The translations under genes and the position numbers were made by a program. A stretch of DNA of 64,000 nucleotides from Candidatus Omnitrophota bacterium (GTDB lineage Bacteria > Omnitrophota > Gorgyraeia > JAGLLT01): assembly GCA_030632085.1 (NCBI GenBank), contig DAOVJY010000001.1, positions 2,125-66,124 of the forward strand, in the 5' to 3' direction. The notes beneath the pieces are model-generated. The model worked only from the letters and a program-made list of their open reading frames with translations. It did no database searches and was not told where the DNA came from. The first letter of the stretch is position 1. Every line of letters starts with the position of its first letter. Positions 2,888-54,550 of this stretch are shown here, piece after piece.

Positions 2888-3090
2888 AAGTCACAAACAA
2901 GAACTAAGAGCAAATAAAAAACAAACACCAATAATCAAATAGTTGTTTCTGTTTTAGTTTGGTTATTTGAATTTGGTCATTGGTTATTATTTGGTTATTG
3001 TATCTTGTATCTTGTATCTTGTGTCTTATGTCTTGCAACTTGTGTCTTATTTCTTGCGTCTTGTGTCCTGTGACTTATGACTTATTTCTT
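2876..3090. repeat. AC-rich arm (2876-2940) abutting a GT-rich arm (2941-3090): an imperfect large inverted repeat of the tract family
   Basis: aaacaccaataatcaaatag | ttgtttctgttttagtttggttatttgaatttggtcattggttattatttggttattgtatcttgtatcttgtgtcttatgtcttgc. Overlaps the annotated nusB start. Confidence 0.6.
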
Positions 3091-3180
3091 GCTTCTAACT
3101 TAATCCTTAGAGCTCACCATCAGTTTACTAACAGTGAGCGCCTTAATCCCTGTCCGCCTATGGCGGGCTTAATCCTGTTT
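3088..3180. repeat. Hairpin element D, copy 1, followed by a ccgcctatggcgg hairpin
   Basis: ttgcttctaacttaatccttagagctcaccatcagtttactaacagtgagcgccttaatccctgtccgcctatggcgggcttaatcctgtttt, between ribH and nusB. Confidence 0.65.
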
Positions 3181-3667: not shown

Positions 3668-3758
3668 GTTTTGTTTTTTTGTTCTTTACTTGTGTCTTAT
3701 TTCTTGTTTCTTATTTGTTTTTTTGCTTGTGACTGGTGACTTATAACTTATTTCTCTG
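3668..3758. repeat. CT/GT-rich degenerate tract forming the ribBA-ribH intercistronic spacer
   Basis: ttgtttttttgttctttacttgtgtcttatttcttgtttcttatttgtttttttgcttgtgactggtgacttataacttatttctc. Confidence 0.6.
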
Positions 3759-5046: not shown

Positions 5047-5061
5047 TCAATACATTCTAAA

Positions 5062-5185
5062 CAAACCTTCTCTCATCTAGACTTTAACTATTGGCAACGG
5101 AATTTAACCGTTTCTGTCCGCATGAGGCGGACTCGTGGGCTTTTACCACCAGTTGGGAATCGCACCCATATCCCGAAGGCTGTAG
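5062..5185 (-). promoter_or_regulatory. FMN riboswitch (RFN element) aptamer
   Basis: Minus-strand sequence GGGTGCGATTCCCAACTGGTGGTAAAAGCCCACGAG...GGTTAAATTCCGTTGCCAATAGTTAAAGTCTAGATGAGAGAAGG matches the conserved RFN cores (GGGTGAAATTCCC / CGGTGGTA.AGCCC.CGAG / GGT.AAATTCC / AGTC..GATG.GAGAAGG). It lies directly upstream of ribBA. Confidence 0.75.
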
Positions 5186-17802: not shown

Positions 17803-17915
17803 TACAAGAATAGCGACTTATGACTTATGACTTTGCACTTGCGTTTTGCATCTTGTCTTTTGTTTTTGTTTTTTTGCTTTTCATTTCTTGTGGCTTATGA
17901 CTTGTGTCTTGTGAC
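17803..17915. repeat. Degenerate CT/GT-rich tandem tract (cttatgacttatgact...cttgtgtcttgtgacttg)
   Basis: Member of a tract family also at 2876-3090, 3668-3758, 36091-36168, 36528-36810, 41575-41652 and 54320-54550. Confidence 0.7.
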
Positions 17916-17943
17916 TTGTTTTTTATACGTTAAACGCTATTTT

Positions 17944-36090: not shown

Positions 36091-36168
36091 GTTTATTTCT
36101 TGCTTCTTGCTTGTGCCTTTAAACTTGTGTCTTGTGACTTATTTCTTGTGACTGGTGACTTGTTTATT
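36091..36168. repeat. CT/GT-rich degenerate tandem tract
   Basis: cttgcttcttgcttgtgcc...cttgtgtcttgtgacttatttcttgtgactggtgacttg, directly upstream of the minus-strand gene at 34097-36085. Confidence 0.6.
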
Positions 36169-36527: not shown

Positions 36528-36810
36528 CTATGTCTAAAGTCTGTTTTTGTTTTTTTGTTTCTTGTCTCTTGTTTTTTGTTCTTTTTTTTGTTTTTGCTTT
36601 GTGCTTTTACTATGAGCCATCAGCTAAGAGCTACTTGCTTTTTGTTTTTTTGCTTTTTCTATCCGCTATCCGCTCTTCGCTGACAACTGATAACTGATAG
36701 TTGTAAGCTCTATGCTTTTTTGCTTTTTGTTTTTTGTTTTTGCTTGTGCCTTGTGCCTTGTGACTTGTGACTTGTTTCTTGTGACTTGTCTCTTATGACT
36801 TTATACTTGA
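36528..36810. repeat. Long CT/GT-rich degenerate tandem tract with embedded agccatcagcta / atccgctatccgctc motifs
   Basis: ttgtttcttgtctcttgttttttg...cttgtgccttgtgccttgtgacttgtgacttgtttcttgtgacttgtctcttatgactt. Confidence 0.65.
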
Positions 36811-36849: not shown

Positions 36850-39800
36850 TTATCTATTAAAAAAAGTCATAAAACCGCTTGAATTCCGCCCATTTTTTTT
36901 AACTGTAGCATGTCCCGCGATTTTTTCCCAAAAATCATCAATTATAGCATATATACAAGGAAGAACGATTAAAGTGAGAGCCGTAGCGCACATAATACCC
37001 CAAACAATAGTCAAAGCTAGGGGCTTCAAAAAAGGATCACCTCCGCCAATGCCATAAGCAACCGGTATTAATCCGAAAACTGTTGTAACGGTTGTTAAAA
37101 TAACCGGCCTGAGCCTTAATTGCCCGCCTTCAATAATTGACTTCCCGCGCTCTACACCTTGCCGCCTGAGACGATTTATAAATTCAACCAAAACGATAGA
37201 ATCATTAACCACAATTCCGGTTAAACCGATAAAACCAACCATCATAAAAAATCCGAGCGGTAAACCATGAAAAAAGAAGGCCCAGATAACTCCAATGAGC
37301 CCAAAGGGTATAGCCATCATAACAATGAAGGGTTGAATCATTGAATTAAACGTCGCGGCTAAAATCATAAATATCAAAAATAATGCCAAACCAAAAGCTA
37401 AAATAAAATACTTAGCAACGTCTTCATTTTCCTTTTGCTCGCCACCGTAAGTTACATCATAACCGGGATATTTATTCTCTACACCGGTAAACTCTTTAGC
37501 TAGCATTTTATTAGCCGCGACTGATGTAATATTTTTATTATCTACATTGGCTCTAACAGTTATAACACGTTTACCGTCTAAGTGGCTAATTGACGATACC
37601 GCCTTTTTTTCTTTTAGGTGAGCAACTTTCTTTAGCGGTATCAGGTGGCCATATTGGTTAGGAATCATTATTTTATCAAATAAATTCTTATCAGTTCTTA
37701 ATTCCTCCGGAAACCTGACAACAACATCGATTTCTTCTTCAGCCTTAGTAGGTTTAATGGATGTAGCTACTCCTCCTTTAAAGGCAAATCTTACTGATGC
37801 GGCGATATCCTCTATAGTTACATATGAACTGGCAGCCGCCTTTTCATCAACAACCACCTGTATTTCTTTTCGCCCAACTTCGTGTGTATTTTGAACATCG
37901 GAAACACCTTTAATTGTGCCTAGATATTTCATAATTGACTCTGCTATTTCATTTAGAATTTCAAAGCTCTCACCCCTTATCTCAACAGCAATAGCCATAC
38001 CCACCGGAGGGCCTTCCTGCTCTTTTTCAAAATAAAGGTTATTGAACCCTTCTACGCGAGCCATTTGCGGCCTTAAGGCCTCAATTATCTCAGATACACT
38101 TTTAGACCTCTCCGTATAAGGTGTTAAATAAACAGTTACCTGAGCAACATGAGACCCGCTTTTACCATATTCATCAAACATCCAACTCTGGCCCATCATA
38201 CCTACCTGAGTAGTGTAAGACGCAAGTTGAGCTTCAGGCATTTCGGCAATCATTTTCTCAACCTGCTCTATTAATTCATTGGTCTTACTTAGAGGAGTAC
38301 CTACCGGAGCCTCTGCCCTTATATAGAACTGCTCAATACCTTCTTCAGAGCCAAAAAGGACAAAATTCATTAAAAAAGCTAAAACAAAGGTAGCGATTAG
38401 GGCCATAAATACACCGCCAATAACCCAATAACGCTTATTCAGCGCCTTTTTTAACACCCGCGTATAAAACTTAAGCAAATGCCTAAACCAGTGTGACTCT
38501 TTTTTAGAATCCAACTTACCTTTCTTGGGCACTTTTATAAAATCGGTAAAATGTGAAGGCAAAATTATAAGAGCCTCCAATAACGAAGCCACCAAAGCAA
38601 TGATTACTACCGCGGGTATATTTTTTAAGAACTTGCCCATCATGCCCGGAAAGAAAAATAAAGGAAAAAATGTGGCAATAGTGGTTAATACAGCTGTAAT
38701 AACCGGTTTCAAAACTTCATTCGTTCCTTTTATAGCGGCATCTCTGGGGCTATATCCCTTCTCAACATAACGTGAGCAGTTTTCAGCTACAATAATACCG
38801 TCATCAACTACCATACCCAAAACAATAATTAAACCAAACATACTTATGAGATTAATGCTAATTCCCAGGCAAGCCATAATTGTTACGGTAGCGGCAAAAG
38901 CAATTGGTATGCCCAAAGCAGTTAATAACGCGGTTCTGTGGTTTAGGAAAAACATAAGCACACAAATAACTAAAATAAAGCCTACGATTCCGTTATTCTT
39001 TAACACACCGAGGCGCCGCTTGATATAATAAGACAAATCATCAATATATGATACCCGGAGATTTTCATCTTCACGGCTTATAAATTCTTCGGTTCGCCTT
39101 ACAGCCTCATCGACTATCGTGACCGCGTCTCCGCTTGAACGTTTTATAACCGTCAGAGCAATCGACCTGCTGCCGGAGCTTTTATTAATGATATCCTCAT
39201 CCTCAAAAGTAAACTTAACTTTAGCAACATCTTTAATCTTAAGCGCGTTACCCAAATCATTAGCCCTGATGATAACATTTTCTATCTCATCCAAAGTAAA
39301 AAATTCACCCGTTGTTCTAATGGTAATTTCTTCAGCGCCTCTAATTTTACCGGCCGGTATACTGACATTCCTTTTACCTAAGGCATTCATAACCTCCCGC
39401 AAACTTACATGTACTTCCTTTAGTTTAGCGGGATCGATCTCGATCCAGACTTCCCTATCTCGCCAGCCGGTCCTGGAGATTGAAGACACACCCGGAACAT
39501 CCTCTATTTCATCTTCTAAGCGCTCAGCGATGCCCTGTAGTTTTTCTTCACTCATCTGCCCGCTTAAAACGATTTTAACAATGGGAATTACACCTGAAGT
39601 AATTTCTGTAACAATAGGCTCTTCGGCATCATCAGGCAAACCGGTTACTCTATTAATTGCCTGCTCTATATCATCAACTACCTTATCTTTATCTTTTACA
39701 TCCTGGCTAATATCCAGTTGTATTGAAGAAACATTATCAATTGAGCTGGATACCATGGTTTCAATACCATCAACACCTTTAAGCTCTTTCTCCATAGGTA

Positions 39801-39999
39801 CTGTAACTAACTTCTCCACTTCTTGGGGAGCCGCTCCGGGATAAACTGTCTGAACAATAACCATATCAAAAGATACTTCAGGAAAGGCCTCACGCCTGAT
39901 ATGATAAACATAGATAGTAACCAGGCCCGCGATAATTATAAATATTGATATAAGATTAACGAGTAATGAATGCCTGACTGAAAATTCTGATATTTTCAT
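36850..39999 (-). CDS. RND-family efflux transporter (AcrB/HAE1-like)
   Basis: 1049 aa, 12-TM RND architecture with two large periplasmic loops. Adjacent TolC-like gene. Confidence 0.9.
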   Translation of the reverse strand: MKISEFSVRHSLLVNLISIFIIIAGLVTIYVYHIRREAFPEVSFDMVIVQTVYPGAAPQEVEKLVTVPMEKELKGVDGIETMVSSSIDNVSSIQLDISQDVKDKDKVVDDIEQAINRVTGLPDDAEEPIVTEITSGVIPIVKIVLSGQMSEEKLQGIAERLEDEIEDVPGVSSISRTGWRDREVWIEIDPAKLKEVHVSLREVMNALGKRNVSIPAGKIRGAEEITIRTTGEFFTLDEIENVIIRANDLGNALKIKDVAKVKFTFEDEDIINKSSGSRSIALTVIKRSSGDAVTIVDEAVRRTEEFISREDENLRVSYIDDLSYYIKRRLGVLKNNGIVGFILVICVLMFFLNHRTALLTALGIPIAFAATVTIMACLGISINLISMFGLIIVLGMVVDDGIIVAENCSRYVEKGYSPRDAAIKGTNEVLKPVITAVLTTIATFFPLFFFPGMMGKFLKNIPAVVIIALVASLLEALIILPSHFTDFIKVPKKGKLDSKKESHWFRHLLKFYTRVLKKALNKRYWVIGGVFMALIATFVLAFLMNFVLFGSEEGIEQFYIRAEAPVGTPLSKTNELIEQVEKMIAEMPEAQLASYTTQVGMMGQSWMFDEYGKSGSHVAQVTVYLTPYTERSKSVSEIIEALRPQMARVEGFNNLYFEKEQEGPPVGMAIAVEIRGESFEILNEIAESIMKYLGTIKGVSDVQNTHEVGRKEIQVVVDEKAAASSYVTIEDIAASVRFAFKGGVATSIKPTKAEEEIDVVVRFPEELRTDKNLFDKIMIPNQYGHLIPLKKVAHLKEKKAVSSISHLDGKRVITVRANVDNKNITSVAANKMLAKEFTGVENKYPGYDVTYGGEQKENEDVAKYFILAFGLALFLIFMILAATFNSMIQPFIVMMAIPFGLIGVIWAFFFHGLPLGFFMMVGFIGLTGIVVNDSIVLVEFINRLRRQGVERGKSIIEGGQLRLRPVILTTVTTVFGLIPVAYGIGGGDPFLKPLALTIVWGIMCATALTLIVLPCIYAIIDDFWEKIAGHATVKKNGRNSSGFMTFFNR

Positions 40000-40014
40000 G
40001 AGTTTTTCTTAATC

Positions 40015-41493
40015 TTACTCTGTTATTTTTATTAAATCATCCGTATCTAAATTAATTATAATATTATTTTTGGCTAATTCAAGCTCTATCCTGGAAACGC
40101 GGTATTCAAGGTATGACGCGGCCAGTGACATCTGCGCGTTTAGTAAATCATTTTGGTATCTTATTAAGATGTCTGAGTTTGATCTGCCGTATTTAGCTCT
40201 TTTTTCTTCGGCTATAAGTTTCTCGGCCTGCAATCTTACAATCTCTTCCCATCTTCGTATTTTCTCCGCGTCAATATTGACCCGTCGAACTCTAATATTT
40301 AATTCACTCGCAATCTCAACTTCCAGTTTTTTTAAGTTGATAAGCGCCTTTTCCTTCAAAAGAACCGCTTGCTTCTTTTGTGCCGCGGCGCTTCTGTTCT
40401 CTAAGGGCATACTAATACTAACTCCTAGATAATATTCAGAATTGTCTTTATCCGCGATATCTTTCAATGACCCCTTGCCGTCGGTGTCTATACCGTTTCT
40501 CTCGTATGTGGCCACCAGATCAATTTCCGGCCAGAGATTATTCTTCTTTATAACCAAATTTATATCTTGAGCCTCAACATTTTTTAAGGCTGCCCGATAA
40601 TCTCTTCTTTTGGCCACGGCATCTTTTAAGTGCGCAATATAATCAGCATTTGTATATGAAGTTACAAGGCTTTCGCTGGGCTTTATGATTTCGCCGGTAT
40701 CAATATTCAACTTAACCTTCAAGAGATTAGAGGCATTAACTATGTTATTTTGGGCTATTTCATAATGTATATTGCTAATGTTAAGGTTAGCTTCACTGGC
40801 ATAGAGATCCGGCTCCTCAGCAATTCCCCTATCAAATCTATCCTGATATATTTCATAAAGATGCTCGGCTCTCTTGAGCATATTATAATTAATCCCTGCC
40901 GCTTTATAAGTATAAACTAAATTCCAATAAGCAATTTCGCAATTAGCCAATGAAGCTTCTATCTTATTTAAACTATCCAGGCTTGCTTGTTCGTAGTTTA
41001 AAGTAGTTATCTTTACATTTCCCCTGTCTTCTAAACCAAAAAAGTTTTTACCCAAAGACTGCCTAATGGTAACTTTTGCCGATGACTCATATGAAGGGCT
41101 GATTATTACCAACTTCGAATCAGAATAGTCTCTTTGGTGAATAAAGTCGGCTTCAATCTTTGTACCGGTAGGAAGTTTTTTACTAATCCCGAAGTTATAC
41201 TCCGTTTCAGTAGATTTACTGGCTGAAGAACTGCTCACTGAGACTAACTCATCATCAGTATAACCGCCGCCGGCTTCAATTAGAATATCAAAAACCGACT
41301 TAGCGCTTTCTATGCTCGCTTTGGAATACTCGGCATCTATTTTAGCTAATTTAATATCTAAATTATTAGCTATAGCTAATTTTAGAGCGTCATCTCTTGA
41401 TAGCTCTATATTCAGATTTTCTGCTCGCGCAAAAATAGGGCAAGCGCAAAATAAGAATATTATGGATACGTATATATATTTTTTAAGGCTCAT
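40015..41493 (-). CDS. TolC-like outer membrane efflux protein
   Basis: 492 aa with signal peptide and duplicated OEP repeats. Upstream of the RND gene on the same strand. Confidence 0.8.
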   Translation of the reverse strand: MSLKKYIYVSIIFLFCACPIFARAENLNIELSRDDALKLAIANNLDIKLAKIDAEYSKASIESAKSVFDILIEAGGGYTDDELVSVSSSSASKSTETEYNFGISKKLPTGTKIEADFIHQRDYSDSKLVIISPSYESSAKVTIRQSLGKNFFGLEDRGNVKITTLNYEQASLDSLNKIEASLANCEIAYWNLVYTYKAAGINYNMLKRAEHLYEIYQDRFDRGIAEEPDLYASEANLNISNIHYEIAQNNIVNASNLLKVKLNIDTGEIIKPSESLVTSYTNADYIAHLKDAVAKRRDYRAALKNVEAQDINLVIKKNNLWPEIDLVATYERNGIDTDGKGSLKDIADKDNSEYYLGVSISMPLENRSAAAQKKQAVLLKEKALINLKKLEVEIASELNIRVRRVNIDAEKIRRWEEIVRLQAEKLIAEEKRAKYGRSNSDILIRYQNDLLNAQMSLAASYLEYRVSRIELELAKNNIIINLDTDDLIKITE

Positions 41494-41574
41494 TTTATTT
41501 ACCTATGCCGTTATATAAAACATTGTACATAAAGTAACTATATCATTTATTTACTATGAAATCAAATGAAGAGA

Positions 41575-41652
41575 AAGCAAGACACAAGACACAAGACACA
41601 AAACACAAGTCATAAGTCATAAGTCATAAGTCACAAGCAAAAAACAAAAAGC
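41575..41652. repeat. AC-rich degenerate tandem tract (same family, opposite orientation)
   Basis: gcaagacacaagacacaagacacaaaacacaagtcataagtcataagtcataagtcacaagc on the plus strand, upstream of the plus-strand MATE gene. Confidence 0.65.
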
Positions 41653-41768
41653 TTACAGCTCTCAGCTATCAGCCATCAGCTAAACGCTAAAAAAATAGCG
41701 GTAAAAAGGAAAGTCAAAAATATATTCCTTGAAATCTCCTGAGTTATATAAGATAATAAATCCTAATT

Positions 41769-43151
41769 ATGATTAAATTCTTCAAAAGAAATAAAACTAC
41801 TCCCAACCTAACAGAGGGTGATATTCTAAATAGCATTTTCATACTTGCCCTGCCCCTTTTAGTCCGGGCTGTCCTTGGTTCTTTTCAGTCGGTTATAGAT
41901 ATGTTCTGGGTCGGAAAACTTGGCCCAACGGCGCTAGCGGGCGTAGCTATGGGTGGAACTATTGTAATGGTCCTGTTTCCGCTTTTAATAGGTATCGGCA
42001 CCGGTACGACTGTAATGGTGGCTAGAGCCATAGGCGCGAAAAATCAGGAAGCGGCTGATAACGCGGCCACTCAATCAATTATTATAGCTCTCATTACAGC
42101 CGCGATTTTATGTTTAATTGGAATCTTATTTTCACGACAACTTCTAGAGTTACTGCAGGCAAGCCCCGAAGTTACAATTATAGGCCAAGGGTACCTTAAA
42201 GTTATTCTAGCGGGTGGTATTGCTATGACCATGCTTTTTCTGTGCGGTTCCATTTTACAAGGCGCCGGGGATACTATAACTCCTATGAAAATTATGGGGC
42301 TGTCTGTTGTCGTGAATATTATCATTGACCCTTTTTTGATTTTTGGCTGGTGCGGCCTGCCGGCATTAGGAGTCAAAGGCGCGGCCCTGGCTACTATTAT
42401 CGCGGAAGGCGCGGGAGCAATCATTTTACTGTATATATTATTTAAAGGTAAATCACATATACATATCAGGTTTGATAAATACAAAATAAATTTTGCGGCT
42501 ATCTGCCAGATATTTAAAATAGGCATACCTTCTTCTCTTCAAATGTTATTTCGGCACTTGATGAATTTAGTCCTAATGGGCATAGTGGCTACTTACGGAA
42601 CTTATGCCGTAGCCGCCTACGGCATTGGTTTGCGCCTGAGAATGATGTTTTTACTGCCCGCCTTCGCGTTTGGAACCGCGGCCGCGACCCTGGTTGGCCA
42701 AAACCTTGGAGCCCAACAACCTGAAAGAGCGCACAAAACAACCTGGCTGGCTGTACTGATAAATGCGGCTGTTATGGCATTTATAGGTATAGTCTTATTT
42801 ATATTTTCAGATACTATTATTAGCATCTTTAATAAAAATACTGACGTGGTCTTAATCGGGACAAGATACCTAAAAATAACTTCTCTCTTCTTCCCGGCCA
42901 TCGCCTTTGGGGTGGTTTGCGGAAGAGCTATTAACGGCGCCGGGGACACTATCCCGCCTATGATAATATCCTTTGTTTCTCTCTGGCTTATTCAAATACC
43001 CCTGGCTCTTATTTTGCCAAAATATACAATTTTAGGGCTTGACGGCATCTGGTGGGCTATATCAATAGCCACACTCACACAAGGCATATTAGCTTTCTTG
43101 TGGTTTGAAAGAGGAACCTGGAAACTAAAAAAGGTACATTTATATACATAA
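41769..43151 (+). CDS. MATE-family efflux transporter (NorM/DinF-like)
   Basis: 460 aa, 12 TM, MatE duplicated halves. Confidence 0.85.
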   Translation: MIKFFKRNKTTPNLTEGDILNSIFILALPLLVRAVLGSFQSVIDMFWVGKLGPTALAGVAMGGTIVMVLFPLLIGIGTGTTVMVARAIGAKNQEAADNAATQSIIIALITAAILCLIGILFSRQLLELLQASPEVTIIGQGYLKVILAGGIAMTMLFLCGSILQGAGDTITPMKIMGLSVVVNIIIDPFLIFGWCGLPALGVKGAALATIIAEGAGAIILLYILFKGKSHIHIRFDKYKINFAAICQIFKIGIPSSLQMLFRHLMNLVLMGIVATYGTYAVAAYGIGLRLRMMFLLPAFAFGTAAATLVGQNLGAQQPERAHKTTWLAVLINAAVMAFIGIVLFIFSDTIISIFNKNTDVVLIGTRYLKITSLFFPAIAFGVVCGRAINGAGDTIPPMIISFVSLWLIQIPLALILPKYTILGLDGIWWAISIATLTQGILAFLWFERGTWKLKKVHLYT

Positions 43152-45352
43152 TGGAAATCAAAGAGCTGTGCGAAAAGTTTAATTTAACACAAGAAGTAGC
43201 TGATATTCTCGCTAAAAAAGGCTATAAAAAGTTACATCCTCCTCAAGTGACGGCCTTAAAATCAGGCGTCTTAGAAGGTAAAAACTTTGTACTTGCCATG
43301 CCGACAGCCAGCGGCAAAACACTTATCGCTGAATTAGCTATGGTAAAATCAATTTTATCTAAAAACGGTAAGGCCTTATATGTTGTTCCTTTAAGGGCAT
43401 TAGCCAGTGAAAAATACGAAGACCTCAAAGAAAAGTATTCACAGTTGGGGCTTAAAATAGCTTTAGCTACAGGCGACTATGATATACCATCAAAGTCTTT
43501 AGCAAATTATGATATTATTGTATCTACTTCGGAAAAAGTTGACTCACTCTTAAGATTCAGGGCTCGGTGGCTGACTGAAAGTTTAACTATAGCCGTTTTT
43601 GATGAAATTCACCTTATAGATGACAGTTCCAGGGGCCCAACATTAGAAATCCTTATAGCCAGGCTCAAACAAGCTAACTCCTCCATACAGCTTGTTGGCT
43701 TATCGGCTACTATAAAAAACGCGAACCAAATCGCCTCCTGGCTTGAGGCTGAGTGCTTCTTGAGCAGCTGGCGGCCGGTTAAACTCAAAGAAGGTGTCTA
43801 TTATGATAAGGTTATCTATTTTGAAGATGGAGATAAAAGGGAGGTTTCCGGCTCCTCAACCACGGGCATTAACTCTCTCTGCATTGAAACAATCCGGGAA
43901 AACGGCCAGGTCTTAGTTTTTGTAAGCACCAGGCGTTCCACTCAAGCGGAAGCCAGACGCATCGCGACTATCTTAAGTAAAGCCTTAACTGACGAAGAAA
44001 AAATCATCTTGAATCACCTTTCTAAAAAAATAAAAACCTCTTCCTCTGAATCCACTAAAGTAGCGATTGAATTAGCCGAGTGTATAAATAGCGGCGTTGC
44101 CTTCCATCATGCGGGCCTAACTCACAATCTAAGAAAACTCGTTGAAGATAACTTTAAGAAAAATATTATAAAGGTTATTTGCTGCACACCTACCCTGGCC
44201 GCGGGCGTCAACTTACCGGCCAGAAGAGTAATCATCAGAGATTATAAAAGATTTGAATCAAGTATCGGCTCTCATTATATCGCGGTTTTTGAATATAAAC
44301 AAATGCGCGGACGCGCGGGAAGGCCTAAATATGATACCTATGGCGAGTCCATATTAATCGCCAAGTCGCAAGATGAAAAAGATGCTCTTTTTGAAGACTT
44401 TGTCCACGCTGAACCTGAACCTATTATTTCAAAATTAGGACAAGAAAACGTCCTTTGCACGCATATACTTTCATCTATCGCGGCCGGATATGTACATACT
44501 GAAAAAGGCCTTATGGATTTTTTATCAAACACCTTCTTCGCCATCCAGGAAGACCCGCAAGTACTTTGCTATTTGACTGATAAAGTTATTGATTTTTTAT
44601 GCTTTGAGGAACTAATCACCTCCGATAATGGAAAATACAGAGCAACGGCTTTTGGCAACCTGATCTCAAGGCTATATATTAACCCTCAAACAGGGGTTAT
44701 TATCAGAAAAGGCCTTAAGAACTCAATGGAAATACATCCCTCAACTATAGCCTTATTACATTTAATCAGCAGTTGCCCTAATATGCCTAATATAAGATTA
44801 AATAAAAAGAATAAAGATGAAGTAGAAATGTTTTTCGGCCTCAACAGCGATAATCTTTTACTGCCGTTTCAAAGATACTACAGCCATTCGGACTATAATA
44901 TGTATTTACAATCGTTAACCACCGCTTTAATGTTCAATGAATGGGTGGAGGAAACAAAAGAAGACAGTATCTGCGATAAATATCCTGTAGGCCCGGGAGA
45001 CATCAGGCGACTAATCGAAACAGCCAAATGGCTTTTATATTCCAGCGAACAGATAGCCGCTCTTTTTAACATCAATATTGTCGCCTCTAAGCTCCAAGCC
45101 CTTCAAAAAAGAATTCAATATGGCATAAAAGAAGAACTGCTTTCATTGGTCAGCATTAGAAGCGTGGGGCGTGTAAGGGCCAGAAACTTATTTTCCGCCG
45201 GCATAAAAAACCCCTTTGATATTAAGAGAGTTAATCTTGACGCCCTCATAAAAGCGGGCGGAATCGGTAAGACGGTTGCCGCGGGAATTAAGAAACACGT
45301 CGAAAGTGATAAATTCAATCCTTCAATACTGCTCAGGATTGACCCTGAGTAA
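43151..45352 (+). CDS. Ski2-like superfamily-2 DNA helicase of the Hel308/Hjm type
   Basis: Motif I MPTASGKT, motif II FDEIHLIDD, SAT motif LSATIKN, motif VI QMRGRAGR, winged-helix/ratchet region and C-terminal HhH domain (VSIRSVGRVRARNLFSAGIKNPFD). ~730 aa as in archaeal Hel308. Its start ATG overlaps the MATE stop (taATGg). Confidence 0.8.
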   Translation: MEIKELCEKFNLTQEVADILAKKGYKKLHPPQVTALKSGVLEGKNFVLAMPTASGKTLIAELAMVKSILSKNGKALYVVPLRALASEKYEDLKEKYSQLGLKIALATGDYDIPSKSLANYDIIVSTSEKVDSLLRFRARWLTESLTIAVFDEIHLIDDSSRGPTLEILIARLKQANSSIQLVGLSATIKNANQIASWLEAECFLSSWRPVKLKEGVYYDKVIYFEDGDKREVSGSSTTGINSLCIETIRENGQVLVFVSTRRSTQAEARRIATILSKALTDEEKIILNHLSKKIKTSSSESTKVAIELAECINSGVAFHHAGLTHNLRKLVEDNFKKNIIKVICCTPTLAAGVNLPARRVIIRDYKRFESSIGSHYIAVFEYKQMRGRAGRPKYDTYGESILIAKSQDEKDALFEDFVHAEPEPIISKLGQENVLCTHILSSIAAGYVHTEKGLMDFLSNTFFAIQEDPQVLCYLTDKVIDFLCFEELITSDNGKYRATAFGNLISRLYINPQTGVIIRKGLKNSMEIHPSTIALLHLISSCPNMPNIRLNKKNKDEVEMFFGLNSDNLLLPFQRYYSHSDYNMYLQSLTTALMFNEWVEETKEDSICDKYPVGPGDIRRLIETAKWLLYSSEQIAALFNINIVASKLQALQKRIQYGIKEELLSLVSIRSVGRVRARNLFSAGIKNPFDIKRVNLDALIKAGGIGKTVAAGIKKHVESDKFNPSILLRIDPE

Positions 45353-45367
45353 ATTGAAGGGTCAAAA
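45316..45367. repeat. Nested palindromic element B, copy 2
   Basis: caatccttcaatactgctcaggattgaccctgagtaaattgaagggtcaaaaa. It encodes the last ~12 codons (NPSILLRIDPE) and the stop of the helicase ORF. Confidence 0.7.
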
Positions 45368-45417
45368 AAACTAGGCCAAAAAAGAGATAAAAAAACGGTC
45401 GCTGTCCCTATTTTACA

Positions 45418-47556
45418 CTATTTTTTGTGCACTTGCTCCAGCCTACCGTCCTGGCTCCGGGGCGCAGTAGGAGCTCGCCAGTTCCAATCAACATTGGGCT
45501 CCCAGTTACTGTCTTTCATAGGTGAAATAATAATATCAATCGGCTCACTAAAGAGACCGCTGCAGTTAAAGACGGCTTCTAAATTACTTCCATTACTGAG
45601 GCTAAATAAACCAATTGATAACATATCGCGTAAATCATCAAAACCATCAATATCATAGGCGTCAAGGAGGTTATCGAGATCATCAACGCCGTCAGCACCA
45701 CCCGCTTTATTTATAACATAAAATTCAGCTTTTAAAGTACGCTCATCGCCAATCTTAATCTCAAACCCATCGCCTACTTGCTCTACATCCCCATAATAAT
45801 CATTAATATTGCTATATTCAACCATGTCGTTCACCTTAAACTCATAATCTGAAACAGCTTGATACCGGTCCCCGACTCCACCATTTATCCCACCAAAGTA
45901 AACAGTCTCCTTAATAGAGTCATTATTATGGGCTAAATCTATTTCCATTTTTGTCGGATAAGCAAGTTTAGAATTACTCATCTTCACTTGATAATAAGTC
46001 CCGTTATCACTGGTAATTATATAAATATCGTCATCCTCAAACACATTTAAATAATCCTGCCAAGGCAATTCATTTAGCTCATCACCTTCAATATCTCTAT
46101 TAAAGGTAGTTGTGAAACTCAATGTCGATAACCCATGCCTGCCGCCTTGTTCGCTGGCATCAGCCGTACGTAAGTTTATATCCAGAATCTGAACCTGATT
46201 ATCAGCCGGGCGCATGATGTATTGCTCAACCCTTACTCTATTGCCATGCATATCTTTCATGACTTTATGCATTTGAGCATCAGATAATTGAGTCACGCGG
46301 GCATCCATATCGCGCCAATAAATATCTTTCCTATGTTGAGCAATATCATTCCTGATATCGCCTTCTTCAATAAGGTTGTAAAACTCCTGCCTCATTTCAT
46401 ATCGAGAACCATATCTATCTGAATGAATTGCACTATCATCAGCAAACGCGTCTTCATTATTACCCCAACCATCCGAATCAGAATCATACTGATCGTAATA
46501 ATCCCTCGGGAAGGCATCGCCGGAATTAACAACTCCATCACCGTCTATATCACCATCAAACTCATCATCAACTCCATCACCATCTAAATCATTGCCTGAG
46601 GCACGGTTTGGATCGGTAGGATATAAATCGTCTTTATCTAAAACGCCATCGCCATCACTATCCTTATCCGTATCGCCTCTTAAAGCTGAACCCTGAACAT
46701 TCTGTTCATTTTTCTTATTATCTCTGGCGTCTTTAGATTTACTATCTAAATTTTTACTCATATTGGAAGCATCTTTATTAAGATTACTGCCGGCACCTTC
46801 AGGAGGCGCTGTGTATGGGTCGGCGGTTTTACCTGACGGCCTGGAAAGGTTTTCATTGCAGAATTCACCCAAATCTTTCACCCACGAATTCCATCTTCTT
46901 TTCTGCCAGGAACCAATTCTTTTAGTTGGGCCTATAAAGCCTCCGCCTCCCATAGTTTTCTTATGGCCTTCATTTATATTAGACTGATCGCCTCTTGGCC
47001 GTCCCTGATCATCTAAGGGCTGCATGAATATTTTATTTTCAAAACAATAAGCGATGGTTTTAGGATTATGGGTTACTTTCCAGCCGGTACCCTTGGCGCC
47101 GCAAATAGCCACAGGTGTCTTTATTTCAAAATGAGTACCTTTACCGGTTTTTTGTAAAATACAGGAGAGTTCACCTTTATCAAGTAAAATTTGCGTATTA
47201 TCAGGTGATATTCTGGTAAGTTCAATAAAAGAAGCGCGTTCTACGCGTACCACATTTTTCTTAGCTGATTCCTCGGCATAGTTAAGCATAAGCTCAATAT
47301 AAGAAGCGGTTTTACCTGTCTTAATCCTAGTGCCGCTTTTTAACTTCATACCTACCGCGGGTATCATCCAGTCATTATCGTTCTTTTTCTGGATTTTAAC
47401 GTTGCCTTTGTAGCGAATTACCACAGCATCAGTTCCGGTAAATTTAATATCGCTAAGACTACTATCGTCCGCGGAACATATATCCGCCACGATAAACAAT
47501 GTCCCGATAAAGCCAAAGACTATAAATATAAAGAGACAAAAACGAATGAATTTCAT
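45418..47556 (-). CDS. Secreted FecR-like domain protein with Asp-rich thrombospondin-type-3-like calcium-binding repeats
   Basis: Signal peptide; FecR-like beta domain near the N-terminus; DTDKDSDGDGVLDKDD / DLDGDGVDDEFDGDIDGDGVVNSGD repeats. Confidence 0.5.
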   Translation of the reverse strand: MKFIRFCLFIFIVFGFIGTLFIVADICSADDSSLSDIKFTGTDAVVIRYKGNVKIQKKNDNDWMIPAVGMKLKSGTRIKTGKTASYIELMLNYAEESAKKNVVRVERASFIELTRISPDNTQILLDKGELSCILQKTGKGTHFEIKTPVAICGAKGTGWKVTHNPKTIAYCFENKIFMQPLDDQGRPRGDQSNINEGHKKTMGGGGFIGPTKRIGSWQKRRWNSWVKDLGEFCNENLSRPSGKTADPYTAPPEGAGSNLNKDASNMSKNLDSKSKDARDNKKNEQNVQGSALRGDTDKDSDGDGVLDKDDLYPTDPNRASGNDLDGDGVDDEFDGDIDGDGVVNSGDAFPRDYYDQYDSDSDGWGNNEDAFADDSAIHSDRYGSRYEMRQEFYNLIEEGDIRNDIAQHRKDIYWRDMDARVTQLSDAQMHKVMKDMHGNRVRVEQYIMRPADNQVQILDINLRTADASEQGGRHGLSTLSFTTTFNRDIEGDELNELPWQDYLNVFEDDDIYIITSDNGTYYQVKMSNSKLAYPTKMEIDLAHNNDSIKETVYFGGINGGVGDRYQAVSDYEFKVNDMVEYSNINDYYGDVEQVGDGFEIKIGDERTLKAEFYVINKAGGADGVDDLDNLLDAYDIDGFDDLRDMLSIGLFSLSNGSNLEAVFNCSGLFSEPIDIIISPMKDSNWEPNVDWNWRAPTAPRSQDGRLEQVHKK

Positions 47557-47705: not shown

Positions 47706-48311
47706 TTAATCTTTAAGATGATAATCAATAAACTGTGAGAGGAGTTCTCTGACAGTTTCCGGCGGACGGACAATAAAGTAGTGGTTTACAATCGCGTGGC
47801 CCAACTCATGCGCCAAAACATTCTCATTAATTCTATCTTCCGTAGTATATATCGTGTTATTTTCATATACGTAAAACGAATAAAGATGTCTACGCTCACC
47901 CATAATTTCTTCATAGGCATCATCGAGCATTTTTGTGGCTTTATAAAAAACCACGTTAACATGAAAATCGGCGGGATACATATCAAGTATCTGCTCCGAC
48001 CTTAAAAGAATTATGTCACATTTCAGGGCAACTCTTTTCGAAACACTGCCCTCGGCTTTAAGAGCGTTTTTTTCTGTCGCGAGGATATTAATAAATTTAA
48101 TGTTCAAACGCTTATCTAATTTATCAAAGTCGATATTGCCCACAAAATAAAGCGTACAATATTCACCTTCAACCTTATAAGCATTGTTCAATTCATCCGC
48201 CGGTACCCCGGATGAAAAAACAGAAATAAGCAAGGCGCTTATAAATAGAACTAACGCGAAAGCACGAGTTCCATTAAAGCTTGAACGTATTGATTTCCCG
48301 GGAGATATCAT
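47706..48311 (-). CDS. Secreted putative zinc metallopeptidase-like protein (HExxH)
   Basis: Signal peptide and a single HELGHAIVNH motif near the C-terminus. No other family assignment possible. Confidence 0.4.
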   Translation of the reverse strand: MISPGKSIRSSFNGTRAFALVLFISALLISVFSSGVPADELNNAYKVEGEYCTLYFVGNIDFDKLDKRLNIKFINILATEKNALKAEGSVSKRVALKCDIILLRSEQILDMYPADFHVNVVFYKATKMLDDAYEEIMGERRHLYSFYVYENNTIYTTEDRINENVLAHELGHAIVNHYFIVRPPETVRELLSQFIDYHLKD

Positions 48312-48831
48312 CTATAAGCTCTTTAGCCTCTTTACTTGTTTGATTTTTATCAGACTGTTTTTCCGCAATCAGAGAAAGAGCGTCTATCTTCTCTCTAAGT
48401 GATGAAATTCGCCTATTTAACGATTTGACCATTATATCTAAACTTTCGGCTACAATTTGCAGCTGATCCGCGGAACGCAGTTTTACTTCAAGGCTCAAGT
48501 TTCCATCTGTCACCTCTCGCGCCACTCTCTCAAATCTATATGCCGGGCCAACTATTTTATGTGATAAAAATAATGTAATTGAAATTACAGCCAAACTAAT
48601 TATAACTGTTGTAATTAGAGCTGTTAAAACCATCGAAGGTAAAAGGTAGTCCGCGGTAGACTTAATCACCAGCCTCGAATTTTCAAAAGCGGTAGTGCAG
48701 CTGGTCATTGAAAACATATACACCAAAGCGCCAAATACCAAACACGCCAAAGCTATAAGAAGGCAAAACTTAATTATAAATTTTGATTGAAAACTCTTGT
48801 TAATGTAATATTTTCTTCTTTTATTTGACAT
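48274..48831 (-). CDS. Membrane protein with HAMP domain
   Basis: Two TM segments flanking a short loop, followed by a HAMP-like amphipathic region (VGPAYRFERVAREVTDGNLSLEV...). Its 3' end overlaps the downstream ORF by ~38 nt, so the start is uncertain. Confidence 0.4.
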   Translation of the reverse strand: MSNKRRKYYINKSFQSKFIIKFCLLIALACLVFGALVYMFSMTSCTTAFENSRLVIKSTADYLLPSMVLTALITTVIISLAVISITLFLSHKIVGPAYRFERVAREVTDGNLSLEVKLRSADQLQIVAESLDIMVKSLNRRISSLREKIDALSLIAEKQSDKNQTSKEAKELIDDISREINTFKL

Positions 48832-48846
48832 TCAAAGCCTCCAATT

Positions 48847-49419
48847 TTATTCTAAGTTAATTTGCTTAAGAACCTCTTCATTAATTTTGATGTAAGATTT
48901 ATCTTTTAATTCTTCAATCCAGCCTCTCATCATGGCAGTCTCTTTTTCACATCTGATGATTCTTTTAATCTCGGGCTTAACTTCCGCCAAAATCTCCACA
49001 TCGGGATTCTTCTCCTTGAGAACTTTGTAATACGCCTGAATCTCATTATCATAAATAAAAACCTGATCAGATATCTCTTTTGCCTTTTTTTCAATTAACA
49101 TAATAAGTAAAGTTTGTTTCCAGTAACTCTCTATTTTTTTTCTGAACCTTTCATCTTTATCTAAGTTGAGGCTCTGAGCCTCCCGCAAAAGTACTTCTTT
49201 CTCTATGACATCATTTAAGGCGTTTAGCCTGCCCGCGTACGTTTTTATGCTCCGCGGCCTATAAAGAGATAGGCTTTTAATATCCTCCTTAAAATCATTA
49301 ACACTCATATAATAGGAATCAATTTGGGCGACCGTTTCAGAACTTTTTGAATTTTCCGAACAATTAATTTGTAAAATGGCTAAAATTGATATGCTAACGC
49401 AAAGTAAAATTTTACGCAT
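48847..49419 (-). CDS. Periplasmic SurA-N-terminal-domain-like chaperone lipoprotein (hypothetical)
   Basis: Signal peptide with ...LQINCSE lipobox-like cysteine; helical domain resembling the SurA N-terminal chaperone domain. Confidence 0.35.
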   Translation of the reverse strand: MRKILLCVSISILAILQINCSENSKSSETVAQIDSYYMSVNDFKEDIKSLSLYRPRSIKTYAGRLNALNDVIEKEVLLREAQSLNLDKDERFRKKIESYWKQTLLIMLIEKKAKEISDQVFIYDNEIQAYYKVLKEKNPDVEILAEVKPEIKRIIRCEKETAMMRGWIEELKDKSYIKINEEVLKQINLE

Positions 49420-49627: not shown

Positions 49628-50962
49628 ATGAAAAAAATTAAAAAGGAATTATCTTTACTTGCGTTTTTACTGGTTATATGTTTTTTAGCTTGTAATTTAG
49701 TATACGCGGACGACAATATAGCCGGGGCTAAAGATACAAGAGACCTTGAGCTCTCAGATGAGAATAAAGCGAAACAAAGTGATATTAGGTTTTTTGGAAA
49801 AAAAGTAATTCCGATTTTAAATTTAGACCTTTTAGGTACTTATTCCAAAATTCAGGGACACAATGACACTACCGGCGCCATTGTTGACGTACTCGCCTCA
49901 CCCGCGATTAAAATTAATGATAACCATTATGTAATTCCGCTTTATAATTTCAACTATACCAGAGAACAACAAATTATAACTGAAGAAGAAGGCGGTTACT
50001 CCGTCCAACAAACACTTAACCACAACGTTTATTTAACTAATAAACTGAAATTAAATGATAAACTCACTACAAAAATAAGTGGTTTTGGAAGCTGGTCATA
50101 CAATAAAGAAACTAAAGATGAAAATTGGTCAAACGGACTTTATAACTATACCGATGTTGGCGGTATTATGGATTTCGAGTATGAACTGGGCGATATCCGG
50201 GATAACGTCTTTGATGAAGCCGGCTTAGAACTGGAATATTACAAGCGTAAATATCCTAACTTCAAATCTCTAATATCTCTTGCTTCTCCCACAGCTTCTG
50301 AAGAAGATGAAAAAGACTATGACGGCTTCAAGTTAATCTTCGGTTATTTAAGGGATAATCCTCAAGGATTATCTGTCGAAGCTGCATACCAGCCCCTCTG
50401 GAAAAAATATATTGACAAACTGGTTATTGGTTCTGACGGCGTTTTAATTGATGGAGATAAACGCGAGGACAACCGGCACGCCTTTGATCTAAACTTAAAA
50501 TATCCTACAACAAAACGCCTTACCTTATATCTTGAGAATGAACTCACGATTAACAACAGTAATCAAAACTTTTATGATTCTAAAGGTACTACAAGCCTAT
50601 CTGATGATGAATACATTTCCAACTATTATGATTACAACTCTTATATGATTAGGCCGAAAGTATCCTATGCTATCCCAGTTAAGGAAGAAAAAGACCTGAC
50701 TGTTCATCTTGCCTACGCGTATTTAGATAAACAATACAACGATCGCAAGGCTCAAAGTTCAACCGGCCTTTATATGAGTGAGGACGAAGAAGATCAATTC
50801 CACACCTTCAGCTTCGGGCTGTCATATCCTATAACTGAAAAAGTTAAAGCTATAGCTCTATTTGATTACACCATTGCCAAATCAAACATGGAATACGAGA
50901 AGTACTACAGATATAACTATGATTTGATGAGTATAGCTTGCGGTATATCCTGCAGATTTTAA
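49628..50962 (+). CDS. Putative outer-membrane beta-barrel protein
   Basis: Signal peptide; alternating amphipathic beta-strand pattern with Tyr/Asn-rich composition; C-terminal ...GISCRF ending in Phe, as in OMP sorting signals. Confidence 0.45.
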   Translation: MKKIKKELSLLAFLLVICFLACNLVYADDNIAGAKDTRDLELSDENKAKQSDIRFFGKKVIPILNLDLLGTYSKIQGHNDTTGAIVDVLASPAIKINDNHYVIPLYNFNYTREQQIITEEEGGYSVQQTLNHNVYLTNKLKLNDKLTTKISGFGSWSYNKETKDENWSNGLYNYTDVGGIMDFEYELGDIRDNVFDEAGLELEYYKRKYPNFKSLISLASPTASEEDEKDYDGFKLIFGYLRDNPQGLSVEAAYQPLWKKYIDKLVIGSDGVLIDGDKREDNRHAFDLNLKYPTTKRLTLYLENELTINNSNQNFYDSKGTTSLSDDEYISNYYDYNSYMIRPKVSYAIPVKEEKDLTVHLAYAYLDKQYNDRKAQSSTGLYMSEDEEDQFHTFSFGLSYPITEKVKAIALFDYTIAKSNMEYEKYYRYNYDLMSIACGISCRF

Positions 50963-54319: not shown

Positions 54320-54550
54320 TTAAGACACAAAATATAACCAATCATCAATAATCAAGTTACAAGATACAAACAATATTCAAATTCCAACATCCAAGCACCA
54401 AACTGCTATCCTTGCTTTGCTTCGGTTTGATTATTTGACCCTTCAATGTTAATCAGGGTCAATCCTGAGCGCAATCGAAGGATTGAATTTGTTATGGTTA
54501 TTGGTCATTGTTTGGTTATTGTCTCTTGTATCTTGTTTCTTGTTTTTTTT
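54320..54550. repeat. Composite repeat: AC-rich arm, palindromic element B copy 3 (54433-54485, inverted), GT-rich arm
   Basis: Left arm aagacacaaaatataaccaatcatcaataatcaagttacaagatacaaacaatattcaa. Right arm ttgttatggttattggtcattgtttggttattgtctcttgtatcttgtttcttg, which is roughly the reverse complement of the left arm and nearly identical to 2970-3010. Confidence 0.65.

Follow-up and report, generated by a model that had tools for sequence, protein, structure and literature searches.

How does a bacterium come to carry an archaeal-type DNA helicase, and why does the gene for that helicase begin on the last base of a drug exporter gene? The question is raised by a gene pair in contig DAOVJY010000001.1 of a Candidatus Omnitrophota bacterium (assembly GCA_030632085.1), of which positions 2,125 to 66,124 were analyzed (64,000 nucleotides; hereafter the window). 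The pair consists of a gene for a MATE family efflux transporter and, on the same strand, a gene for a 733-aa superfamily 2 (SF2) helicase of the Hel308/Hjm type. We consider it probable that the helicase is an orthologue of archaeal Hel308 that entered the lineage in a single old transfer, that a deletion later fused it to the MATE gene, and that dependency for expression, not a role in an SOS response, keeps the pair together. In support of the original prediction that the enzyme type is uncommon in bacteria, Hel308/HELQ has been reported to occur only in archaea and metazoans and to be missing from bacteria (PMC12278908); for bacteria, a review of 2026 mentions Ski2-like helicases only collectively (PMC13623763). 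We found no literature on a bacterial or Omnitrophota Hel308, and the supplements of an Omnitrophota survey paper do not mention it. What is new here is a known kind of enzyme in an unexpected bacterial host phylum.

By sequence and predicted fold, this protein of 733 aa is truly orthologous to archaeal Hel308/Hjm, has all five domains, and is neither an Lhr nor a HamB. Enzymes of the Hel308/Hjm type belong to SF2, unwind DNA 3'-to-5', anneal strands, and work at stalled forks and on recombination intermediates; the Omnitrophota protein would be expected to share ATP-dependent 3'-to-5' unwinding and annealing of forked substrates. Pfam domains in the helicase open reading frame (ORF) are DEAD, Helicase_C, HTH_61 (winged helix), Helicase_dom4_arc (PF21280, 1.1e-34), and HHH_5, and the approximate layout is RecA1 (residues 1–200), RecA2 (201–397), winged helix (398–490), ratchet domain 4 (534–658), and helix-hairpin-helix (HhH) domain 5 (665–715). 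The SF2 motifs are invariant across a 28-sequence alignment (Walker A 50-MPTASGKT-57, DEIH 151–154, SAT 185–187, motif VI 384-QMRGRAGR-391). So are F318, H319, H320, A321, G322, and L323 of motif IVa (317-AFHHAGL-323) and G673, R674, R676, and R678 of the domain-5 sequence GRVRAR (673–678), which contains the RAR motif. In Hel308, the domain-5 RAR motif acts as a brake on single-stranded DNA. In RecA2, (F/Y)HHAGL has been described as the motif IVa signature of Hel308/HELQ (PMC10484726).

Profile and structure comparisons gave the same answer. The four top-scoring NCBIfam models are the four archaeal Hel308-type equivalogs, each matching near full-length, and the models for Lhr, RecG, RecQ, and ligase-associated helicase score far lower. 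Against NCBIfam NF002654 the helicase reaches 868.1 bits over residues 8–719, narrowly missing the cutoff of 887 by 19 bits, and against NF040935 (Hel308) it reaches 624.5 bits, below the cutoff of 1200; in every other sequence and fold comparison tested it behaves as a Hel308, the NCBIfam naming cutoff being the exception. The protein aligns over its full length with the Archaeoglobus fulgidus Hel308 structure (PDB 2p6r; 541 bits, residues 1–714), and the Pyrococcus furiosus Hjm and Sulfolobus solfataricus Hel308 structures align as well. An AlphaFold2 model built from the 28-sequence alignment has a pLDDT of 87.5 and a pTM of 0.81. Its nine best Foldseek matches in the PDB are all Hel308/Hjm (2zj8, 2p6r/9b15/2va8; TM 0.75–0.84, 38–41% identity, about 680–726 aligned columns), and the POLQ helicase domain and Brr2 rank after them. 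The original prediction of an archaeal-type Hel308 with all motifs and an HhH domain, as opposed to an Lhr, is thereby borne out (541 bits to 2p6r versus 50 bits to the Lhr structure 5v9x).

The C-terminal end of the protein differs from that of its closest relatives. The window helicase ends in ...KFNPSILLRIDPE (45340–45352; 733 aa), and those in L001–L005 end in ...KFKIL (725 aa). An opposite-strand ORF of 107–123 aa overlaps the helicase 3' end in L001–L005, with no counterpart detected in the window. For these additional C-terminal residues the model predicts disorder (pLDDT below 50).

The host belongs to the Omnitrophota and is related to Ca. Kappaea, a genus of that candidate phylum: its FabF shares 88% identity with the Candidatus Kappaea frigidicola protein, and the gene content of the window is bacterial (SMC, plsX-fabHDGF, ack-pta, electron transfer flavoprotein/acyl-CoA dehydrogenase, an Mla transporter, and a resistance-nodulation-division [RND] pump with its outer-membrane factor). 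A flavin mononucleotide riboswitch (95 bits, 5061–5184, minus strand) 5' of a ribBA-ribH-nusB-ribD-ribE cluster likewise confirms that this is bacterial DNA.

To place the helicase, relatives were collected and the best 80 matches of a pattern scan over species-representative genomes were taken as the genome sample; taxon labels of metagenome-assembled genomes (MAGs) are those of their depositors. The nearest relatives are metagenome contigs (93–74% identity), then MAGs labeled Omnitrophota or Omnitrophica (66–50%) and one labeled Ratteibacteria (53%), with Hadarchaeota, MSBL1, and other archaea next at about 50%. The best 80 loci comprise 24 bacterial and 56 archaeal ones. The bacterial loci are labeled Omnitrophota or, in 'binchicken' MAGs, carry labels beginning with Planctomycet; among the archaeal loci, Hadarchaeota stand at about 50% and Bathyarchaeia, Asgard, Thermoplasmata, Methanomethylicia, and others at 42–47%. 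An unrooted neighbor-joining (NJ) tree of 87 sequences and 714 columns recovered one bacterial clade in 200/200 bootstraps and a split uniting bacteria and Hadarchaeota in 179/200. All bacterial-labeled sequences in a 196-sequence tree, enlarged by the remaining protein matches, fell into one clade of 72 with no archaeal-labeled member inside. When the tree was rooted with bacterial HamB-like Ski2-like helicases of roughly 1010 aa (Ralstonia L095, Bradyrhizobium L096, Hymenobacter L097, Nostoc L098, and Manganitrophus L100), the bacterial clade was kept in 197/200 bootstraps, its union with Hadarchaeota in 105/200, and a position of the bacteria basal to all archaeal Hel308 in 1/200. The Omnitrophota clade is nested within archaeal Hel308 in this rooted tree, beside Hadarchaeota, and identity is 50% to Hadarchaeota versus 27% to the outgroup bacterial helicases. 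The trees show the bacterial Hel308 clade to be monophyletic and to lie inside archaeal Hel308, as far as NJ on these sequences can resolve it. We infer that the gene moved from archaea to bacteria, tentatively from a Hadarchaeota-like donor. The original prediction had left the origin open between vertical and lateral; the rooted tree supports a lateral origin from archaea, and the helicase groups with archaeal Hel308 and not with a widespread bacterial Ski2-like clade.

The gene does not look foreign in its present host. GC content, GC3, and codon usage of the helicase are host-typical (codon distance 0.20 versus a window mean of 0.22 ± 0.07), and no integrase or transposase was found in its flanks. 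A recent transfer or a mobile island was rejected on these grounds. Across 26 bacterial loci, dtd lies divergently upstream in 11/26, tatD upstream in 10/26, and recO convergently downstream in 8/26. Because composition is native and this neighborhood (dtd-tatD, recO) recurs across Omnitrophota loci, the data point to one old archaea-to-bacteria transfer followed by vertical descent. The loci with recO downstream are L009, L027, L028, L031, L033, L037, L057, and L071, often with ybeY, an HD-domain gene, and phoH; those with divergent dtd/tatD upstream are L009, L016, L020, L023, L026, L030, L031, L033, L035, L037, and L040. A PolX-like gene is also found near Hel308 in L009.

The second half of the question concerns the exporter. 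The two genes share one base (Table 1), and the same arrangement was found in an independent Logan assembly (L092). The annotated helicase start is supported because all 27 aligned homologs begin at the same column. Among relatives the junction is a 1-nt overlap in L001–L004 and L090, a 4-nt overlap in L006, and a 4-nt gap in L005 and L007. No promoter-like site was found near 43000–43150, no consistent Shine-Dalgarno sequence precedes the helicase ATG in the window or in the relatives of the MATE clade, where the 50 nt 5' of the ATG are MATE coding sequence, and no significant RNA structure that would mask the helicase start was found around the junction (z = −0.30). Since the junction is tight and conserved and the helicase ATG has neither a promoter nor a Shine-Dalgarno sequence of its own, coupled expression of the two genes is a reasonable inference. 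The overlap of ATG and MATE stop described in the original prediction is thus confirmed and recurs in relatives, and the co-translation drawn from it is likewise reasonable.

Transcription of the pair would start just ahead of the exporter gene. The sigma-70-like promoter candidate listed in Table 1 ends 11 nt before the MATE ATG, and CTTGAA...GATAAT is kept at the same distance in L090, L001, L004, L005, and L006 (CATAAT in L007), from which a leaderless or near-leaderless MATE-Hel308 transcript is predicted. The MATE protein matches Pfam MatE in two stretches corresponding to two repeats (6.8e-71) and passes TIGR00797 (306.6 bits, cutoff 147.4). Its score against the NCBIfam DinF model NF007690 is 61.4 bits (cutoff 409), lower than its scores against the SolL, YeeO, MepA, and NorM models. 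By these profiles the protein is a generic MATE transporter and not specifically DinF, and the DinF-like label of the original prediction was not upheld. Most homologs with 50–55% identity and a source name are MATE proteins of Omnitrophota.

The pairing is not confined to this genome, and it is not general either. A tblastn search with the window MATE protein across 89 loci found it adjacent to the helicase only in L001–L007 and L010 (61–87% helicase identity); L090 (93% helicase identity) also has an adjacent MATE gene. Among the 26 bacterial loci, the MATE gene is adjacent only in six of the window's clade and absent from the other 20. Conservation of the pair, which the original prediction proposed to check, therefore holds beyond a single genome and is confined to the window's sub-clade (61–93% helicase identity). 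Within it, MATE identity tracks helicase identity (85/75/66/63% versus 87/74/62/61%), as expected under joint vertical descent. Flanks in the MATE clade vary, with TetR-OEP-RND, MarR-OEP-RND, or a GH94 gene upstream and a FecR-like or beta-CASP gene downstream.

Outside the sub-clade the helicase stands alone, without an adjacent MATE gene, in L008 (56% identity) and L009 (53%). The sister lineage L008/L093 carries a MATE orthologue (54% identity) that shares contig and strand with Hel308 and lies 7.1 kb 5' of it, and the block between them in L008 holds tatC, a spermine-synthase-like gene, a radical-SAM gene, tatA, and a YHS gene on the opposite strand. Close 5' of the Hel308 ATG, a TTGAC(A/T) −35 box accompanied by a −10-like box is present in eight of nine non-MATE Omnitrophota loci inspected, and in L009, L016, L023, L026, L031, and L033 the signal TTGACA...TGTTA(G/C/A)AA ends 7–9 nt before the ATG. 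This suggests that non-MATE Omnitrophota Hel308 is a stand-alone gene with a leaderless transcript. In L057 the same −10-like TGTTAGAAT recurs about 11 nt ahead of the Hel308 start, and no clear TTGACA goes with it. The MATE clade lacks signals of the TTGACA...TGTTA(G/C/A)AA type. Loss of a 7-kb block probably joined the MATE gene to Hel308 and took away the helicase promoter; the operon is specific to its lineage and probably arose by accident.

The history that we propose would run as follows. An early Omnitrophota ancestor would have gained Hel308 once from an archaeon, the closest sampled donors being Hadarchaeota, and the gene would then have passed down vertically as a separate unit under a promoter of its own, with dtd-tatD and recO as its typical neighbors on either side. 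A MATE gene on the same strand would have lain about 7 kb upstream of Hel308 in the window's lineage. Loss of the intervening block would have set it flush against the helicase at the cost of the helicase promoter. Hel308 would now be transcribed from the MATE promoter, and ribosomes ending at the MATE stop would probably re-initiate at the overlapping helicase ATG. The pair would have been retained since separation would silence the helicase, not as an SOS module; an expression dependency of this kind would alone keep the two genes together.

Several observations weigh against parts of this account. Trees were built by NJ on corrected p-distances and not by maximum likelihood. Bootstrap support for the grouping with Hadarchaeota falls to 52% when the outgroup is added, and Hadarchaeota are short-branched, their identity to Bathyarchaeia (0.50) equaling that to the bacteria. 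The donor is uncertain because of these short branches and the simple tree method. The genome sample comprised the best 80 matches listed, so that further bacterial phyla with Hel308 may have been missed; one Ratteibacteria-labeled sequence falls within the bacterial clade, and four MAGs of the clade were given labels beginning with Planctomycet by their depositors, so that the clade is not proven to be Omnitrophota-only. Finally, the pair is kept while both flanks vary, which could reflect selection for joint function.

Selection for joint function underlies a rival explanation, developed from the damage-module idea of the original prediction. In it the MATE and Hel308 genes would form a genotoxin or replication-stress module, co-induced by analogy to E. 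coli lexA-dinF, in which the pump would export DNA-damaging compounds and the helicase would rescue the forks that these stall. Many MATE substrates are DNA-binding cationic drugs. In the literature, Hel308/HELQ acts at damaged forks, and the tight junction is kept at 61–93% helicase identity while flanking genes change. We nevertheless consider such a module unlikely. Ten types of LexA-box consensus (including E. coli, Gram-positive, PVC, alphaproteobacterial, cyanobacterial, Leptospira, Fibrobacter, and relaxed forms) gave no match in window positions 41494–41790 or in the upstream regions of L001, L004, L005, L006, L007, and L090, although the motif of Omnitrophota themselves may differ. 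LexA-box-like palindromes upstream of 41769 had been suggested as a check, and the inverted-repeat search of 41494–41800 returned only an AT-rich palindrome that spans the MATE start codon. No LexA-like (Peptidase_S24) domain was found among the scanned window ORFs of at least 150 aa, and no lexA gene lies beside the pair. Regulators beside the pair in relatives are TetR or MarR proteins that head the divergent RND operon. The MATE promoter is conserved and has no recognizable repressor site, the low DinF score counts against a dinF counterpart, and the pairing is missing from most bacterial Hel308 loci. In relatives, the TetR operator-like palindromes described below are found on the tetR-RND transcript's side, some 60 nt away from the MATE −35 box. 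SOS (LexA) control of MATE-Hel308 is not supported. Efflux of DNA-binding drugs and fork rescue might conceivably be linked in function; nothing here supports such a link.

Two other explanations concern the helicase itself. If it were an old, vertically inherited bacterial Ski2-like lineage, its archaeal likeness would date from the last universal ancestor; full-length Ski2-like helicases do occur on plasmids of Ralstonia, Bradyrhizobium, Hymenobacter, Nostoc, and Manganitrophus (90–97% query coverage), and Hel308 is compositionally native and syntenic across Omnitrophota. Those plasmid helicases, however, show only 26–29% identity, measure about 1010 aa, carry an N-terminal extension, and are matched by HamB-type models. 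The rooted tree puts Omnitrophota deep inside archaeal Hel308, with the basal position for bacteria almost never recovered; identity to Hadarchaeota is nearly double that to the bacterial group; and the bacterial labels in the clade, as given by depositors and among the matches listed, are only Omnitrophota, Ratteibacteria, and those beginning with Planctomycet. Vertical descent from the universal ancestor is therefore very improbable in our view. The helicase could also be an anti-phage defense sensor, of the Hachiman HamB kind or of another helicase-based system, or part of a mobile island, and PADLOC HamB models do match its RecA core (best 193 bits). These matches cover the core only (e.g., residues 27–212), against 868 bits for the full-length Hel308 model. 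A Hachiman system consists of a HamB helicase of about 850–1150 aa and an adjacent HamA nuclease; at this locus there is no HamA partner, and no neighbor matches any PADLOC model. The flanks free of integrase and transposase genes, the host-like composition, and the stable position between housekeeping genes across the phylum also speak against this explanation, to which we give hardly any credence. The outgroup plasmid helicases sit in contexts that look related to defense or toxins: in Ralstonia there are 'antitoxin' and KAP NTPase genes, and Hymenobacter has a caspase-family gene.

The region upstream of the pair has been remodeled in the window. RND and OEP neighbors are likewise present in L001–L005 and L007, and in L001–L005 the space separating the RND operon from the MATE gene holds an intact TetR gene. 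In the window, about 170 nt of heptamer repeats replace the TetR gene body, promoter, and palindromes; positions 41548–41715 have no counterpart in L001, L004, and L005, both flanks align, and the independent assembly L092 has the same layout. The 16-bp palindromes ATGAATATATATTCAT and ATGAATAATAATTCAT, found beside the tetR start in L001, L004, and L005 about 60 nt from the MATE −35 box, look like a TetR operator. The window's RND efflux operon is probably free of TetR control. TetR control of the MATE-Hel308 promoter was also considered and dropped, as the palindromes are located at the tetR start, well off the MATE −35 box, and are deleted in the window.

Table 1. Features of the MATE-Hel308 locus and its upstream region in the window
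Feature	Position	Strand	Basis and details
Divergent RND efflux operon	36850..41493	-	AcrB-type pump 36850-39999 (ACR_tran 7.7e-202); outer-membrane factor 40015-41493 (OEP 3e-31)
TetR gene remnant, last 12 codons, directly upstream of OEP start	41498..41533	-	tblastn with L001 TetR, only residues 194-205
Heptamer tandem arrays CAAGACA x8.6 and CAGCTAT x3.9	41578..41682		Tandem Repeats Finder (TRF); fill the place of TetR gene, promoter, and operator
Sigma-70-like promoter candidate TTGAAA, 17-nt spacer, GATAAT	41729..41757	+	Best site in 41400-45600, 10/12 matches
MATE family efflux transporter gene, 460 aa, ATG start	41769..43151	+	ORF list, Pfam, NCBIfam
TAATG junction	43149..43153	+	MATE stop TAA 43149-43151 and helicase ATG 43151-43153 share one base
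Hel308/Hjm-type SF2 DNA helicase gene, 733 aa, ATG start	43151..45352	+	ORF list, Pfam, NCBIfam, PDB, AlphaFold2, Foldseek

Heptamer tandem arrays occur in intergenic spacers elsewhere in the window as well (2998–3096, 3670–3755, 17887–17919, 36123–36165, 36743–36801, and 54519–54545, besides 41578–41682). Their units include CTTGTGA and TTGTATC, and on the coding strand of the neighboring genes they read as a C/A-rich 'ACAAG'-like repeat. One possibility is that they are an unstructured CA-rich spacer or leader element. Downstream of the pair, three consecutive ORFs of 201, 185, and 190 aa (47706–49419, minus strand) have no convincing Pfam match apart from one sub-threshold HAMP match, and a divergent 444-aa ORF (49628–50962, plus strand) has no Pfam match. 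Genes sized like the 201-, 185-, 190-, and 444-aa ORFs lie near the helicase in L004, and only the three small ones in L006; the 201-aa ORF family was confirmed by sequence clustering.

A broader, more doubtful possibility, which we advance only tentatively, is that Omnitrophota took up an archaeal Hel308 once and early and made it their own helicase for fork rescue and recombination control, possibly replacing RecG, RecQ, or Lhr and working with bacterial partners, as hinted by the recurrent recO adjacency. If true, an entire bacterial phylum would have stably exchanged a DNA-repair motor for one from another domain of life, contrary to the textbook view that bacteria have no Hel308, and in the Kappaea-like lineage Hel308 expression would additionally depend on a drug-efflux gene. 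A monophyletic, syntenic, and compositionally native Hel308 clade in an uncultured bacterial phylum corrects the picture of an enzyme of archaea and metazoa only, and would show cleanly how an enzyme of genome maintenance passed from archaea to bacteria long ago. It also raises the question of how Hel308 works without PCNA, RPA, and Hjc. The MATE fusion illustrates how a deletion may create an operon that is then held by expression dependency, and cautions against reading function from adjacency.

Compared with known systems, the pair resembles E. coli lexA-dinF in that a MATE transporter gene would share its transcript with a gene from the biology of DNA damage. It differs in that the partner there is the LexA repressor and here a helicase, no LexA box was found, the MATE protein falls below the DinF cutoff, and the arrangement looks like a deletion product. 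Hachiman HamB and the related bacterial Ski2-like helicases of roughly 1000 aa have a Ski2-like core in common with the window helicase, and HamB has been described in the literature as functionally Hel308-like; they differ from it in their low identity, N-terminal extension, defense and plasmid contexts, pairing with HamA, and position outside the Hel308 ingroup in the tree. Lhr and Lhr-core proteins are, like Hel308, 3'-to-5' SF2 helicases with a RecA1-RecA2-winged helix-domain 4 layout, and Lhr has been implicated in bacterial DNA repair. The mycobacterial Lhr structure 5v9x, however, reaches only 49.8 bits and residues 32–363 of the helicase, 7lhl reaches 47.5 bits, NF007284 (PRK09751) 35.7 bits against a cutoff of 1496, and TIGR04121 124 bits against 850; the window helicase has a domain 4 of the archaeal Hel308 type (PF21280) and an HhH domain 5. 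Unlike archaeal Hel308/Hjm, the window helicase has a bacterial host, which to our knowledge lacks the archaeal Hel308 partners PCNA, RPA, and Hjc; it also scores just under the NCBIfam cutoff, has no promoter of its own, and is placed behind a MATE gene. With archaeal Hel308/Hjm (2P6R; P. furiosus 2ZJ2/2ZJ8; S. solfataricus 2VA8) it shares the five-domain architecture, the SF2 motifs, motif IVa, and the RAR motif, and the ratchet-domain tryptophan is present as W598, at 38–41% identity to the solved structures and about 50% to Hadarchaeota, the nearest sequences.

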